Shown piece by piece: positions 3 to 16,791 of a stretch of DNA of 64,000 nt (positions within the stretch are counted from its first letter, which is position 1; each line of letters opens with the position of its first letter). A model generated the notes under the pieces. That model was not told the DNA's origin. It made no database searches and was given only the letters and a program-made list of their open reading frames with translations. The stretch spans positions 94,741-158,740 of the forward strand of contig JAZSJH010000006.1 of assembly GCA_045534265.1 (NCBI GenBank), given 5' to 3'. The position numbers and the translations under genes are program-made. This DNA is from Clostridia bacterium. Its GTDB lineage: Bacteria; Bacillota; Clostridia; Christensenellales; UBA1242.

Positions 3-1652
3 ATGCTACAAACTAGAAATGGTAAGAGAACAGCTGCAGCTGCTATTAGAATTGCTTGTGACCTTATTGATGAAGGTATGATTACAGAACAAGAAGCTGT
101 TATGCAAATTGATGCAAAAACACTTGATATGCTTCTTCACCCAACATTTGATGCTGCTGCTCTAAAATCTGCAGACAAAAACAATGTTATCGGTACTGGT
201 ATTGCTGCATCTCCAGGTGCTGCTACAGGTACAGTTGTGTTTACAGCTGAAGATGCTGTTATTCATGGCAAAAACAAAGAAAGAGTAGTTCTAGTAAGAC
301 TAGAAACTAGCCCAGAAGATATCGAAGGTATGAAATATGCTCAAGGTATCTTGACAGTTCGTGGTGGTCAAACATCTCACGCTGCCGTTGTTGCTCGTGG
401 TATGGGTACTTGCTGCGTATCTGGTTGTGGCGATATTAAGATGGACGAAGAAAACAAATGCTTCACACTTGCTGGAAAGACTTTCCACGAAGGTGACTAC
501 ATTTCTCTTGATGGTTCTACTGGTAAAATCTATGATTGCGAAATCAAGACAGTTCCAGCTGACCCTAACAGCGGATACTTTGGCCGTATCATGAAACTTG
601 CTGACAAGTTTAGAGCTCTAGGCGTTAGAACAAACGCTGATAGCCCAGCAGACGCTAGACGTGCTGTTGAACTTGGTGCAGAAGGTATTGGTCTATGCCG
701 TACAGAGCATATGTTCTTCGAACCAGACAGAATTGGCGCATTCAGAGAAATGATTTGTTCTGACTCTGTAGAAGAAAGAACTGCAGCTCTTAACAAAATC
801 GAGCCAATGCAACAATCTGACTTTGAAGGTCTATTTGAAGCTCTTCAAGGCAACCCAGTTACTATCAGATTCTTGGATCCACCTCTACATGAGTTCGTTC
901 CTACAGAAGAAGCTGATATCAAAGCTTTAGCTCAAGCTAAAGGTAAAACTGTTGAACAAATCAAACAATATATCGTTGACCTTCATGAAACAAACCCAAT
1001 GATGGGTCACCGTGGTTGCAGACTAACAGTTACATATCCTGAAATTGCAGCAATGCAAACAAGAGCCGTAATCAAAGCTGCTATCGCTGTTCAAGCAAGA
1101 CATGCTGATTGGAAGATTGTTCCAGAAATTATGATTCCACTTGTTGGCGAAATCAAAGAACTTGCTTTCGTTAAGAAAATCGTTGTTGAAACAGCTGATG
1201 AAGTAATCAAAGCTGCTGGAAGCAACCTAAAATATGAAGTTGGTACTATGATCGAAATTCCTCGTGCAGCTCTTACTGCTGACGAAATCGCTAAAGAAGC
1301 TGAATTCTTCTGCTTCGGTACTAACGACCTAACTCAAATGACATTCGGCTTCAGCCGTGATGACGCTGGTAAATTCTTGACTGCTTACTACAGATCTAAG
1401 ATTTATGAATCAGACCCATTCGCAAGACTTGACACTAATGGTGTTGGTAAACTTATGGATATGTCAGTAAAACTAGGAAGAGCAACTCGTTCATCTCTTC
1501 ACTGCGGTATCTGTGGTGAACACGGTGGCGACCCATCTTCTATCGAATTCTGCCATGCTATTGGTCTAAACTATGTTTCTTGCTCACCATTTAGAGTGCC
1601 TATCGCAAGACTAGCTGCTGCTCAAGCAAACATCAAAAACCCAAGAAAATAA
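3..1652 (+). CDS. ppdK: Pyruvate, phosphate dikinase, C-terminal ~549 aa (5' end lies outside the window)
   Basis: Phosphohistidine swivel motif GGQTSHAAVVARGMG. PEP-utilising TIM-barrel motifs GLCRTEHMFF, FGTNDLTQM, CGEHGGDP. The ORF is open to the window edge. Confidence 0.95.
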   Translation: MLQTRNGKRTAAAAIRIACDLIDEGMITEQEAVMQIDAKTLDMLLHPTFDAAALKSADKNNVIGTGIAASPGAATGTVVFTAEDAVIHGKNKERVVLVRLETSPEDIEGMKYAQGILTVRGGQTSHAAVVARGMGTCCVSGCGDIKMDEENKCFTLAGKTFHEGDYISLDGSTGKIYDCEIKTVPADPNSGYFGRIMKLADKFRALGVRTNADSPADARRAVELGAEGIGLCRTEHMFFEPDRIGAFREMICSDSVEERTAALNKIEPMQQSDFEGLFEALQGNPVTIRFLDPPLHEFVPTEEADIKALAQAKGKTVEQIKQYIVDLHETNPMMGHRGCRLTVTYPEIAAMQTRAVIKAAIAVQARHADWKIVPEIMIPLVGEIKELAFVKKIVVETADEVIKAAGSNLKYEVGTMIEIPRAALTADEIAKEAEFFCFGTNDLTQMTFGFSRDDAGKFLTAYYRSKIYESDPFARLDTNGVGKLMDMSVKLGRATRSSLHCGICGEHGGDPSSIEFCHAIGLNYVSCSPFRVPIARLAAAQANIKNPRK

Positions 1653-11216: not shown

Positions 11217-11306
11217 ATAAATCTCCTTTTTTGATGTATATGTTATAATATTCAAAAGGCAAAAATAATGTTATTTTTTGTAAAATAAGTTTTTTCAAAA
11301 AAGGTA

Positions 11307-11335
11307 TTGTATTTTTGCAGATTGTTTGGTATAAT
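11307..11335 (+). promoter_or_regulatory. Sigma-A promoter with extended -10
   Basis: TTGTAT, 17 nt, TGgTATAAT. Confidence 0.6.
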
Positions 11336-11358
11336 ACAAGTGTATTTTGAGGTGGAAT

Positions 11359-11595
11359 ATGACATTATCATTACTAGGATTTATAGATTTACTTACATAT
11401 CTTGAAAGACCAACCGTAATTATTGGTATGATTTGTTTGGTCGTGGGCGCTAGCATGGCTTTACTTGCTGGTAGAATTGCTGACGCTATAAACAAACAAC
11501 CAACTAATCAACCTAGCAAATTAGAATCTGTACTAAAAGTGGTCGGAGTATGTATCATGACAGTAGGATTTGTACTTATTGCTATACCAAGTTAA
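11359..11595 (+). CDS. Small two-TM membrane protein, hypothetical (78 aa)
   Basis: Two hydrophobic helices. GAGGTGG upstream of ATG 11359. Flanked by its own promoter and terminator. Confidence 0.5.
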   Translation: MTLSLLGFIDLLTYLERPTVIIGMICLVVGASMALLAGRIADAINKQPTNQPSKLESVLKVVGVCIMTVGFVLIAIPS

Positions 11596-11611
11596 TTTTT
11601 TTGTTTATATT

Positions 11612-11639
11612 GCATAGGCAGTCGCCTATGCTTTTTTTT
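11612..11639 (+). terminator. Intrinsic terminator
   Basis: Stem GCATAGGC/GCCTATGC, 4-nt loop, T8. Confidence 0.85.
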
Positions 11640-11738
11640 ATTTTATAAAGCAAAAGTATTTTTTATTTTGGTGTCTATTAATTGACATTTTATATATATT
11701 TTTGATAAAACTATTATGTTAGATTTAAGGAGTTACTT

Positions 11739-14357
11739 ATGGAAAAAAATTACAATCCTAAGGATTTTGAAGAAAGACTATACGAAAAGTGGATGAAGAA
11801 AGGTTATTTTAAGGCAAAAGTTAACCCTGACAAAACACCTTTTACAATCATTATGCCTCCACCAAATATCACAAGCAAACTTCATATGGGGCATGCTTTT
11901 CAACAAACTATACAAGATATAATCATTAGACGCAAAAGAATGCAAGGCTTTGAGGCTTTGTGGCTTCCTGGTACTGACCACGCAGCTATTGCAACAGAAG
12001 CAAAAGTTGTTGAAAAACTAGCAAAAGCCGGCATCAAAAAAGAAGATATCGGCAGAGAAGCTTTTGGTCAACATATAGCAGAATGGTATGACGAATACAA
12101 AGGAACAATCATTAGCCAATTCAAACGTATGGGTTATTCTTGTGACTGGGATAGACTAAGATTTACTATGGACGAAGTTAACTGCAGAGCGGTTAGAGAA
12201 GTATTTGTTCATTTGTACAAAAAAGGCTGGATTTATAAAGGAAAGAGAATTGTTAACTGGTGTCCACATTGCAAAAGCTCTATTTCTGATATAGAAGTTG
12301 ACTTTAGAGAAGTAAAAGGTAACTTCTGGCATATGAGGTACCAAATCGAAGGTACTAACGATTATCTAGAAATTGCTACAACAAGACCAGAAACTATGCT
12401 TGGTGATACAGCTGTTGCTGTAAACCCAAAAGATAAGAGATATACAAAACTTGTTGGTAAAAACGTTATCCTTCCAATACTAAACAAGCCAATTCCTGTA
12501 GTTGCTGATGATTATGTAGAAATGGATTTTGGTACTGGTGTTGTAAAAATTACTCCAGCTCACGACCCTAATGACTTTGAAGTTGGTCTAAGACATAACC
12601 TAGAAGTTATTAAAGTTATCGAAGAAGACGGCAGAATGAACGAACTTGCTGGCAAATTTGCTGGCATGGACAGAATGGACGCAAGAAAAGCTGTTGTTGC
12701 CGAACTTGAAAAACTAGGAAACCTTGTAAAAATCGAAGATTATACACACAATGTAGGTCATTGTGATAGATGTAAAACTGTTATCGAACCACTTATTTCT
12801 AGCCAATGGTTTGTAAAGATGGAAGAACTTGCAAAACCGGCTATTGAAGTAGTAGAAAATGATAGTGTACACTTTACTGAAGAAAGATTTAAGAAAATTT
12901 ACCTTCACTGGATGAAAAACATCAAAGACTGGTGTATTTCAAGACAACTTTGGAGCGGTCACCGTATTCCTATCTTTACATGCCAAGATTGTGGAGAAGT
13001 TATTGTTGAAATGGAAGACCCAACAGTTTGTCCAAAATGCGGTAGCAAACATCTAGTTCAAGAAGAAGACACTTTGGATACTTGGTTCAGCTCAGCTCTA
13101 TGGCCACTATCTACATTGGGTTATCCAGAAAAAACTCCTGAGCTTGATTATTTCTATCCAACCAACGTTATGGTTACAGCTCAAGAAATCATCCAACTTT
13201 GGGTTGCTAGAATGATATTTAGCGGTCTAGAGTATAGAGGAGAGATTCCATTTAAGGAAGTTTTGATTAACGGTACTGTAAAAGACGCTACTGGTAAGAA
13301 AATGAGTAAGAGCCTTGGAAACGGTGTTGACCCTGTAGAAATTATTGAAGAATTTGGCGTAGATACATTGAGATTCTCACTATTTAATGGCGTTTCTATC
13401 GATATGGATAGTAAATTCTCAGAAAAGAAAGTAGAACTAAACAGAAACTTTATTAACAAAATTTGGAATGCAAGCAGATTTGTTTTGATGCAAGCTGAGA
13501 ATGTAAAAGTAAAAGACATTGATGATGTTAGTCTAAATATGGCTGACAAATGGATTTTGACAGAGCTTAACAAACTTATCGAAAGCATTGATAATAAGTT
13601 TGAAAAATACGATATCGGTATGGCTGCAAGTGAACTATATGACTTCTTCTGGACTAAGTTCTGTGACTGGTATATCGAACTTGCAAAAACTCACATTATG
13701 AGCGATAGCGAAAGCGAAAAAGAAGCAACTGTTGCAACACTTATTCATGTTCTTACAGCTCTTCTTAAGATGCTTCACCCATTTATTCCATTTATTACAG
13801 AAGAAATTTACCTTTCACTTCCAAAACATGATGAAAGTATCGTAATTTCTAGCTGGCCACAAACAAACAAAGCATATAACTTTGCAAAAGAATCAAAGAG
13901 TATGCAAGATATTATGAATATTATTAGAAGTATTCGTAATGCTCGTAACGAAAAGAATATCCCTGATAACAAAAAGATTAGAGTAGTTATCATGGCTATC
14001 AAAGATGAAAATATTTTGATTTATTCTACAAAATATATTTCTAAACTTGCAACTGCTAGCGAAGTATCTTTTGTATATGACGAAAAAGACGTTGATTCAA
14101 ACTCTGTAACAATGATTTTTGATATTGCAAAAGTATTCCTTCCTATGAGTTCTATGATTGATAGTTCTCAAGAACTTATTAGACTAAACAAAGAATTAAC
14201 TTCTGTTGAATTTGAAATCTCAAGAAGCGAAAAAATGCTATCAAACCCTGGCTTTGTAAACAAAGCGCCAGCCCAAATGATAGAAAACGAAAAAGCCAAA
14301 CTTGAGAAAAACAAAGCTTTGAAAGAAACAATTATCGAAGCGATTAAGGCACTATAA
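11739..14357 (+). CDS. valS: Valine--tRNA ligase
   Basis: Class I HIGH (LHMGHAF) and KMSKS motifs, editing-domain architecture, and the C-terminal coiled coil typical of ValRS. 872 aa. Confidence 0.97.
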   Translation: MEKNYNPKDFEERLYEKWMKKGYFKAKVNPDKTPFTIIMPPPNITSKLHMGHAFQQTIQDIIIRRKRMQGFEALWLPGTDHAAIATEAKVVEKLAKAGIKKEDIGREAFGQHIAEWYDEYKGTIISQFKRMGYSCDWDRLRFTMDEVNCRAVREVFVHLYKKGWIYKGKRIVNWCPHCKSSISDIEVDFREVKGNFWHMRYQIEGTNDYLEIATTRPETMLGDTAVAVNPKDKRYTKLVGKNVILPILNKPIPVVADDYVEMDFGTGVVKITPAHDPNDFEVGLRHNLEVIKVIEEDGRMNELAGKFAGMDRMDARKAVVAELEKLGNLVKIEDYTHNVGHCDRCKTVIEPLISSQWFVKMEELAKPAIEVVENDSVHFTEERFKKIYLHWMKNIKDWCISRQLWSGHRIPIFTCQDCGEVIVEMEDPTVCPKCGSKHLVQEEDTLDTWFSSALWPLSTLGYPEKTPELDYFYPTNVMVTAQEIIQLWVARMIFSGLEYRGEIPFKEVLINGTVKDATGKKMSKSLGNGVDPVEIIEEFGVDTLRFSLFNGVSIDMDSKFSEKKVELNRNFINKIWNASRFVLMQAENVKVKDIDDVSLNMADKWILTELNKLIESIDNKFEKYDIGMAASELYDFFWTKFCDWYIELAKTHIMSDSESEKEATVATLIHVLTALLKMLHPFIPFITEEIYLSLPKHDESIVISSWPQTNKAYNFAKESKSMQDIMNIIRSIRNARNEKNIPDNKKIRVVIMAIKDENILIYSTKYISKLATASEVSFVYDEKDVDSNSVTMIFDIAKVFLPMSSMIDSSQELIRLNKELTSVEFEISRSEKMLSNPGFVNKAPAQMIENEKAKLEKNKALKETIIEAIKAL

Positions 14358-14927: not shown

Positions 14928-14938
14928 TCATATTTATG

Positions 14939-14967
14939 AAACCTATCAAATTTTGATAGGTTTTTTT
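14939..14967 (+). terminator. Intrinsic terminator
   Basis: Stem AACCTATCAAA/TTTGATAGGTT followed by T7. Confidence 0.85.
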
Positions 14968-15110: not shown

Positions 15111-15141
15111 TTGACAAAAATTTGAGGGGGGGGGGTATACT
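15111..15141 (+). promoter_or_regulatory. Sigma-A-like promoter with a 19-nt spacer, 10 nt of which is a G10 tract
   Basis: TTGACA (15111-15116), AAAATTTGA + G10, TATACT (15136-15141). Confidence 0.6.
15126..15135. repeat. Homopolymeric G10 tract
   Basis: Read directly from the sequence. It is the only G/C homopolymer longer than 5 nt that I noticed in this AT-rich window. Confidence 0.95.
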
Positions 15142-15202
15142 TAGGTAAGGATAATTGTATCAAAAAGTAGATAATATATCTAAACAAAGGAGAAAAGATA
15201 TT

Positions 15203-16180
15203 ATGGCAATGGTAGCTGCAAAATGTACAATGTGCGGATCATCAATCAAAGTAGATGATAGTAAGGAAAAAGGCATTTGTGAACATTGTGGTACTGAGTT
15301 TATAACCGAAAAAGTTATAAATGTAACAAACATAACTAATGTTGACAAATCTACTAACATTTACTACGGCGAAACAACTGACGCCAAAATAAAAAAAGAT
15401 TTGGAAAAAGCATATAAGTCACTAAAAATGGCTGGTTATGACTATATTAATCTAAAAATGGAAGACAATTCCTTAGACGAAGAATTGTGTAGAAGTGCCT
15501 ATACATTGGCAAAAGGCGTAACAAAGAAAGACCCTACTAATTATGATGGTTGGAGATGTCTTGCTCTTATGCACTATGTTGCTTATATGGAAGATGAATA
15601 TGAATGGCTTTATGGCAAAAATACTGGAGAGGGTGATTATAACTTTGACAGAATACTCGATGATACTATAAATGCTATTTATACTGCAACTAAAGTTGCC
15701 CCTAATGATGAAGAAAAAGCTTTTCTTAAAAAGTTAAAAGAAAATGTTAAAATTAACTATTATCAAGAAAAGTTGTACAAAGGCAGAAGTGTTGCGCAAT
15801 ATGTAAATTACACAGAAAAACCGAAAATAAAAGAAGTTTTGCTTTCTAGAGCTTTGCCTTGGATTGGTGGTTGGATTGTAGCTATGGGCTTGTTGCTACT
15901 TATAAATAACTTATTCAAGCTAAATATTTCTTTTATTCCAGAAGATACACCTACAGTAATGGCAATAATGCTTCTTGTAACTGGCGGTATACTAATTGGC
16001 ATATTCTTGTATAAATATATTGGTGCAAAACGCAATCAAAAACAAAGAAAAGATATTGATGATGATAATAAAAAACGTTATAACGAGAAACAAGCAGAAT
16101 ATGAAAACGATATTGCTAACGCAAAAACTTTAGTGGACTGGGAAAGACTAGCTGCAAAATATAATATTGATAAAATATAA
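15203..16180 (+). CDS. Hypothetical zinc-ribbon protein with helical domain, two TM helices and a charged tail (325 aa)
   Basis: CTMCG-x14-CEHCG ribbon at the N-terminus. TM segments ALPWIGGWIVAMGLLLLINNLF and VMAIMLLVTGGILIGIFLY. Start at ATG 15203, behind AAAGGAGA. Confidence 0.65.
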   Translation: MAMVAAKCTMCGSSIKVDDSKEKGICEHCGTEFITEKVINVTNITNVDKSTNIYYGETTDAKIKKDLEKAYKSLKMAGYDYINLKMEDNSLDEELCRSAYTLAKGVTKKDPTNYDGWRCLALMHYVAYMEDEYEWLYGKNTGEGDYNFDRILDDTINAIYTATKVAPNDEEKAFLKKLKENVKINYYQEKLYKGRSVAQYVNYTEKPKIKEVLLSRALPWIGGWIVAMGLLLLINNLFKLNISFIPEDTPTVMAIMLLVTGGILIGIFLYKYIGAKRNQKQRKDIDDDNKKRYNEKQAEYENDIANAKTLVDWERLAAKYNIDKI

Positions 16181-16181
16181 C

Positions 16182-16220
16182 AAAAAAACAACTTATCAGT
16201 AATTGGTAAGTTGTTTTTTT
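16182..16220. terminator. Bidirectional terminator between convergent genes
   Basis: A7, 9-bp stem CAACTTATC/GGTAAGTTG (one G-U pair), T7. Confidence 0.75.
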
Positions 16221-16791
16221 AGTTGTTATCGATTAAGTTTTCGAAGATATATTCGTATATTTGTGGAGCTTTTTCTTGCCATTTTTTGCAGGCGTTTACT
16301 GCTGCGTGGCGAGTAGGGCTCTTTAGTTTTATTTCAAACATTGCTTGTGGCATCATAGGTTCTTTGATGCGAAGAACAACTGTATGTGAGCCATCTTCTG
16401 TGTTTTTGAAATAATCTGCAACATATTCTTGGCTGCGCTTAAAAGTCATACGGTTTTGTTTAGCAAAAGCAGATATTTCTTCTCTCATACTAAGTGGTAT
16501 GCGGTTAAAAAAGTGTGAAATGCAGTTTCTGCCGTCATAAGTTATGTTAAATACGGCATCATTTTTTACGTCAGTTTCGGTTTTTATGGTTTTTGGCCTG
16601 TTGTCTGTTTTGTAGATAAATTTTGCTTCTAGCAGTTGGTATAGGACTTCTTTACAGTCCATATAGTTTAGCCAGCCATTTCTACTTGTACAAATGTCAA
16701 TAATTGAATTTTCAGTCAATGGTATTTCCATTTTGTCAAGAACAAACAATAATATTAACTTGTTAACCATTGCGTCAGCAACAAAATCCAT
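16219..16791 (-). CDS. DUF4364-like protein (putative winged-helix regulator family), 190 aa
   Basis: N-terminal pattern NKLILLFVLDKMEIPLTENSIIDI...NYMDCKEVLYQLLEAKFI resembles DUF4364 members as I recall them. Start moved to ATG 16791, behind GGGGA. Confidence 0.55.
   Translation of the reverse strand: MDFVADAMVNKLILLFVLDKMEIPLTENSIIDICTSRNGWLNYMDCKEVLYQLLEAKFIYKTDNRPKTIKTETDVKNDAVFNITYDGRNCISHFFNRIPLSMREEISAFAKQNRMTFKRSQEYVADYFKNTEDGSHTVVLRIKEPMMPQAMFEIKLKSPTRHAAVNACKKWQEKAPQIYEYIFENLIDNN

Follow-up and report, generated by a model that had tools for sequence, protein, structure and literature searches.

Switches built from simple sequence repeats in promoter spacers are textbook examples of phase variation in a handful of Gram-negative pathogens and in mycoplasmas. 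The vlp promoters of Mycoplasma hyorhinis carry poly-A in the spacer, and the overlapping promoters of hifA and hifB in Haemophilus influenzae carry TA repeats. In Neisseria meningitidis, single-unit slippage in the promoters of porA (poly-G) and of opc and fetA (poly-C) reportedly leads to graded or on-off transcription, findings credited to van der Ende in 1995 and Sarkari in 1994. The known phase variation of anaerobic gut Clostridia operates mostly by DNA inversion. Homopolymers that are unstable and lie between the -10 and -35 elements alter sigma-factor engagement and lead to graded or on-off expression, as documented for Neisseria porA, fetA and opc (PMC2791445).

The promoter described here lies in a 64-kb stretch of clostridial DNA that was analysed as a whole (the window). 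Like the promoters of N. meningitidis porA, opc and fetA, it has an unstable G/C homopolymer between -35 and -10, and, as in M. hyorhinis vlp and H. influenzae hifA/hifB, a spacer repeat sets the distance between the two hexamers. The Neisseria genes encode outer-membrane surface antigens of a Gram-negative pathogen, whereas the present gene belongs to gut Clostridia, its product is predicted to be mostly cytoplasmic and membrane-anchored, and its switching is deduced from metagenome alleles. The Mycoplasma case places the spacer-repeat mechanism in a low-G+C, Firmicute-related lineage; however, the vlp and hif repeats consist of A or TA and serve surface lipoproteins or fimbriae of multi-gene families, in contrast to the single-copy gene found here in a housekeeping neighbourhood. 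A literature search returned no report of a promoter-spacer repeat switch in anaerobic gut Clostridia. The mechanism itself is familiar, whereas both the host clade and the target are new. From the sequence comparisons given below, the G tract is likely to be a functional, slippage-driven expression switch for the downstream gene.

Promoter architecture and spacer length

The promoter region of the window reads GCTTGACAAAAATTTGAGGGGGGGGGGTATACTTAGG and combines a -35 hexamer of perfect consensus with a -10 hexamer 19 nt downstream, the spacer being composed of AAAATTTGA followed by G10 (Table 1). G10 is the sole G/C run longer than 5 across the 64 kb, in which G+C is 34%, the next G run and the longest C run both measure 5, and runs of 6-9 are absent. 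It qualifies as a slippable homopolymer (about 8 or more G/C) that is far above the expectation from composition, as a first-order Markov model predicts ~0.002 runs of this length per 64-kb window. The initial annotation had reported these hexamers, the 19-nt distance, a G10 that was the only long G/C homopolymer of the window and a normal Shine-Dalgarno sequence for the downstream gene, and re-reading the sequence reproduced each of these at the same coordinates.

Table 1. Features of the G-tract locus in the window and of the encoded protein
Feature	Position	Strand	Remarks
Terminator-like hairpin, end of upstream GNAT-like gene	14938..14964	+	12-pair stem, then T run
-35 hexamer TTGACA	15111..15116	+	Invariant among all orthologous loci
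Non-repetitive spacer part AAAATTTGA	15117..15125	+	Sister-lineage counterpart AAATTTTGA
G10 homopolymer, variable spacer element	15126..15135	+	G9, G10 or G11 at the orthologous site of the sister lineage
-10 hexamer TATACT	15136..15141	+	TATACT or TATAAT in all orthologues
Small stem-loop at predicted 5' end of leader	15149..15181	+	Weak fold in the window (z -1.2)
Shine-Dalgarno sequence AAGGAG	15187..15192	+	10 nt 5' of ATG; conserved in leader alignment
Coding sequence, 325 aa	15203..16180	+	ATG start; hypervariable allelic island
Bidirectional terminator-like hairpin	16182..16220	+	Hairpin prediction; common to convergent DUF4364 gene
Zinc ribbon, four-stranded	aa 4-34		CxxC at 8-11 and 26-29; C8, C11, C26 and C29 invariant
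Disordered N-rich linker	aa 36-58		AlphaFold model
Helical domain, TPR-like	aa 59-190		AlphaFold model and partial structural matches
Transmembrane hairpin	aa 217-238 and ~251-273		12-aa outer loop
Long charged helix, then short final helix	to aa 306; aa 310-319		AlphaFold model

Terminator-like hairpins lie on both sides of the coding sequence, which is thus a stand-alone, monocistronic unit. The upstream hairpin, which also occurs at the equivalent place of orthologous loci, insulates the promoter from read-through. With its repeat located between conserved hexamers and its gene isolated by terminators, the promoter is the evident driver of the coding sequence, the transcription start being predicted. 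The ATG at 15203 is taken as the true start, since MAMVAAKC opens every orthologous protein and the same Shine-Dalgarno sequence precedes it, and the TTG at 15155 proposed by mechanical ORF calling was rejected. A minus-strand ORF crossing the tract as C10 (15056-15187) was also discarded, as it is without homologues and lies inside the conserved promoter.

The upstream orthologous region was recovered from 33 loci, mostly by exact-protein look-ups, and scans of genome and metagenome contigs added few full-length relatives. Eight orthologous lineages lack the tract (L001, L002, L003, which is identical to L007, L008, L010, L017, L018/L019 and L020). All eight keep TTGACA-N18-TATA[AC]T, with spacer letters that are unrelated and a spacer of always exactly 18 nt. 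Since every related lineage that was examined has both hexamers at the orthologous site, they are not chance matches, and the persistence of 18 nt through sequence turnover indicates that spacer length is under constraint. The native spacing is thus 18 nt, which corresponds to G9. One tract-less promoter, that of L003, reads TTTTTTTT-GGGAGAAAGG at 18 nt and has a G/A-rich block where L004, a locus of the same species, has the tract; the block GGGAGAAAGG behaves as a fixed-length version of the tract.

Strong sigma-A-like matches elsewhere in the window favour a 17-nt spacer (33 observed versus 16.8 in shuffles) and are depleted at 18 nt (5 versus 16). Given this preference, the 18-nt spacing is a conserved peculiarity of the promoter of the G-tract gene. 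The initial annotation had proposed that G8, with 17 nt, would be optimal. This is not favoured, because the tract-less orthologues hold 18 nt, G9 is common and G8 has not been seen, so that G9 with 18 nt is the likely state of full activity. Which spacer length is "on" is nevertheless not certain, since the strong matches of the window prefer 17 nt.

Tract-length variation and the proposed switch

Length variation was found in a sister lineage with a ValS 97% identical to that of the window and a dS of 0.6-0.7 in the flanking genes; the lineage of the window itself contributes one contig, an exact look-up with the window's protein gave no contig, and its 90% protein cluster has one member. 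The sister-lineage promoter, CTTGACAAAATTTTGA-Gn-TATACTTA, is homologous to that of the window, and 12 contigs carry the tract in four protein-allele backgrounds (P0006, P0161, P0162 and P0165). Five contigs have G9 with an 18-nt spacer (L021, L022, L024, L027 and L029), five have G10 with 19 nt (L004, L023, L025, L028 and L031) and two have G11 with 20 nt (L005 and L033); none of the 12 has G8. Lengths differ within clonal backgrounds of this lineage: eight contigs of the P0161 background match one another across 1.9 kb save for G9 versus G10, and only one G of the tract distinguishes L004 from L005 over 4,625 bp. A further three contigs, L006, L030 and L032 (from a 52-kb scaffold), stop within or beside the tract, as expected for a site with heterogeneous, disagreeing reads. 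Throughout 132.7 kb of related loci, all G/C runs of at least 7 fall at the orthologous tract site.

These alleles support the idea, put forward in the initial annotation, of a switch operated by slippage in the spacer, as the tract is not invariant in related genomes and is the sole polymorphism between some of them. The tract is absent from the eight orthologous lineages above and from the distant members of the zinc-ribbon superfamily that were examined. The 64-kb window contains no other tract of this kind and thus gives no hint that further genes are phase-variable.

The tract would act as a hypermutable simple-sequence repeat that makes up half the spacer in a monocistronic gene's only promoter. 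During replication, slipped-strand mispairing would add or remove single Gs and thereby alter both the distance and the rotational phase between the perfect TTGACA and the near-perfect TATACT. With G9 and its 18-nt spacer the promoter would be fully active, the probable "on" state; G10, the allele of the window, would be weakened and one slippage step away from G9; and G11 would be close to off. Populations would accordingly be mixtures of high, low and off expressers, heritable yet reversible. We infer the effect of length on transcription, as well as the reversibility, rate and benefit of switching, from sequence comparisons; the dependence of expression on repeat number, in particular, is drawn from the 18-nt tract-less spacing and from general knowledge of sigma-70/sigma-A spacing. 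That G9, G10 and G11 appear as the sole polymorphism in clonal backgrounds is visible from public metagenome assemblies alone, and since these assemblies already show the alleles, the switch hypothesis is directly testable with existing reads.

Downstream of the promoter, the leader begins with a small predicted stem-loop that is clearer in L004 (2947-2978), L003 (2950-2979) and L021, with z of -2.5 to -3.1, than in the window. Its letters vary by lineage and the pairing is kept (GUGUGUC/GACACA versus UAUC/GAUA inside GGAUA/UAUCU). It may act in mRNA stabilisation or as an operator palindrome; an Rfam search of the leader found no riboswitch or other known RNA.

A palindrome of this kind could be the real regulatory site, and it is one of two observations that would suit a tract that is real and mutable yet functionally inconsequential, an accident in a tolerant spacer of a gene whose expression is set otherwise and without selection for switching. 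The other is that 18-, 19- and 20-nt spacers all exist as consensus alleles and could all be tolerated. This explanation is improbable. A spacer of exactly 18 nt in eight tract-less lineages, despite complete turnover of its letters, points to constrained length, and G/C runs are otherwise strongly avoided in the window. In addition, a neutral pure run of G9-11 should have been interrupted or have collapsed at a flank dS of 0.6-0.7, whereas the pure tract is present in both the window and the sister lineage despite this divergence and a diverged adjacent leader. By our own calculation, the Jukes-Cantor identity of ~0.57 per neutral site gives P ~0.003 for ten unchanged sites, which suggests that selection maintains the tract.

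All tract lengths come from short-read metagenome assemblies, in which poly-G runs of 9-11 are error-prone. Length variation could thus be an artefact of sequencing or assembly (Illumina poly-G stutter, PCR slippage or differing assemblers) that conceals a fixed cellular length. For some contigs, the same samples were probably assembled more than once; L021 (JGI) and L023 (ENA), for example, have the same contig coordinates and differ as G9 versus G10, which suggests one sample assembled twice, and a search by accession returned no record of sample provenance. Part of the variation could therefore be technical or within-sample, the latter still fitting phase variation: G9 and G10 from one sample, together with the contig breaks, point to the mixed reads that phase variation predicts. 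An artefact is even less probable than a tract without consequence, as consensus lengths vary among many samples and at least four strain backgrounds, stutter reads, usually a minority, should not flip a consensus, and technical error cannot account for a tract placed exactly in the conserved promoter spacer of two species. The poly-G artefact of two-colour chemistry was rejected, because the tract is internal, lies between conserved hexamers and turns up in many assemblies and in two species.

One contig combines parts of two lineages. From the start codon on, L026 (1-3482; ENA ERZ27248351 k141_212047) is 100% identical to the P0161 strain L021, and 5' of the start codon it matches the P0008 lineage, with that lineage's upstream ORF and a promoter that lacks the tract. 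Recurrent chimeric assembly or genuine promoter exchange could account for this sequence; the former, through the conserved 5' coding module, is taken as probable, and L026 was not used as evidence of promoter swapping. At least eight further places show a similar arrangement.

Action of the G run by its sequence, as a regulator site or as a rigid G/C block that tunes -10 melting, is the least credible account of all, since, although the run adjoins the -10 element, where spacer letters can influence open-complex formation, and the same-species allele L003 is G/A-rich at the equivalent place, the other orthologues are A/T-rich and unrelated there, so that no sequence requirement is conserved, the locus has no linked regulator gene, and a single G run cannot form an intramolecular quadruplex.

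The encoded protein

The initial annotation had described the product as a zinc ribbon followed by a cytoplasmic helical part of ~200 aa and two transmembrane helices with a 12-aa loop. The AlphaFold model (9-sequence alignment, mean pLDDT 74.7) and the charge distribution agree with this organization. Basic residues border both transmembrane helices on their N- and C-terminal sides, and these residues together with the cysteine-zinc ribbon point to a cytoplasmic location of both termini. The model thus implies a protein that is membrane-anchored, mostly cytoplasmic and not surface-exposed, and a promoter-spacer switch on such a protein is unusual. P0009, the most divergent orthologue, is without the outer loop in the alignment, so the loop is not the functional part.

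No named family exceeded threshold in Pfam, NCBIfam, PADLOC or PHROGs, nor was one found by PDB sequence profile, by Foldseek against PDB and viral structures, or by a profile search of 1.84 billion representatives. Among defence proteins (PADLOC), the best match was PycTM at E = 0.008 and 14.5 bits, with no stretch passing, and the Pfam match to SieB stayed below threshold (E = 0.02, 15 bits versus a cut-off of 26). These two matches, as well as ZapG-like and SpoVAC matches, were rejected, being below threshold and all on the transmembrane or charged-helix region. Pfam detected no TPR in the protein. Foldseek aligned its helical domain partially, over ~120 residues and at E above 0.1, with the TPR proteins 5an3_A (prob 0.99, TMt 0.51) and 1na3_A (prob 0.93).

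In the profile search, full-length relatives were confined to a few clusters, whereas the first ~50 residues matched ~1,900 cluster representatives. This N-terminal module (window 15203-15360, residues 1-52) consists of CxxC-x14-CxxC followed by GTxFxTEKxI, and neither Pfam nor NCBIfam contains a model specific to it. The C-terminal parts of module-bearing proteins vary and include TPR, BspA-type LRR, CFI-box-CTERM and transmembrane anchors; Pfam TPR repeats occur in 13 of 100 such proteins. Within this Clostridia zinc-ribbon superfamily (N-terminal CxxC..CxxC-TEKVIN), several members, P0020, P0116 and P0056 among them, share with the present protein the order of ribbon, N-rich linker, helical domain and transmembrane helices, in contrast to other members that have BspA-type LRR, canonical TPR or CFI-box-CTERM domains instead. 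The locus is an entry point to a widespread, unstudied zinc-ribbon family.

Allelic diversity, neighbourhood and possible role

The gene is a hypervariable island between conserved flanks. Comparison of the same-species loci L003 and L004 shows flanking DNA that is 94-100% identical on both sides, with ValS 99% identical, dS of 0.15-0.25 and dN of 0.02 or less, whereas the gene bodies (L003 3001-3987, L004 3001-3999) have 51-65% DNA identity and 53% protein identity (about 45% different). The dS of the target gene reaches 1.49 and its dN 0.40, values that are uninformative on positive selection because dS is saturated. Even the first ~75 codons, although conserved in protein sequence, are synonymously saturated (dS ~1.2). 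The window contains a third allele, 60-63% identical to those of L003 and L004. Gene and promoter therefore form an old allelic cassette, which in a genome that is otherwise nearly identical is either maintained or exchanged by recombination, and not simply a fast-evolving gene. A single-gene unit whose expression is stochastic and whose product has conserved termini around a variable middle fits the pattern of a contingency locus, and with deeply diverged alleles within a species as well as switching, the locus would behave as one.

The neighbourhood is that of a core chromosome. The gene is preceded by valS (11739-14357) and a small GNAT-like gene and followed by a convergent DUF4364 gene, an order kept in all relatives with enough flanking sequence; beyond are genes for a YlbJ-like sporulation membrane protein and a dCMP deaminase and, further along the window, pta-ackA, plsX, smc, ftsY, ffh, topA and infB. 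With these housekeeping neighbours, the position is not that of a defence island or prophage. Among named records, the only relatives are assemblies titled "MAG: Clostridia bacterium", including one from sheep rectum, and the host belongs to an uncultured lineage of gut Clostridia. No T-box leader was detected 5' of valS (11256-11738), even at a relaxed threshold, nor any Rfam family in the 64 kb; a valS without a detected T-box is unusual for an aminoacyl-tRNA synthetase gene of a Firmicute.

The switch marks the target protein as a likely player in strong, fluctuating selection. Because the protein is predicted to be cytoplasmic and membrane-anchored, the leading guess, though a tentative one, is that it acts in conflict with phages or other mobile elements, and the best guess for the benefit of switching is control of a costly protein that takes part in such conflict. 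More specifically, and rather doubtfully, the gene may encode a new kind of single-gene, membrane-acting anti-phage or anti-mobile-element protein of gut Clostridia, combining a hypervariable cytoplasmic TPR-like sensor with a conserved zinc ribbon and a membrane hairpin, and stochastically switched by poly-G to limit its cost. Under such a defence role, balancing selection would keep ancient, recombining alleles at one fixed locus of the core genome, and a commensal Firmicute would possess a contingency locus for phase-variable defence. A place in the core genome is, however, some argument against a typical defence gene.

Conservation is extreme in the convergent DUF4364 gene (16219-16791, minus strand): no nonsynonymous difference separates L003 from L004 or L001 from L002, and its pN is 0.012 between the window and L004, in sharp contrast with its hypervariable neighbour.
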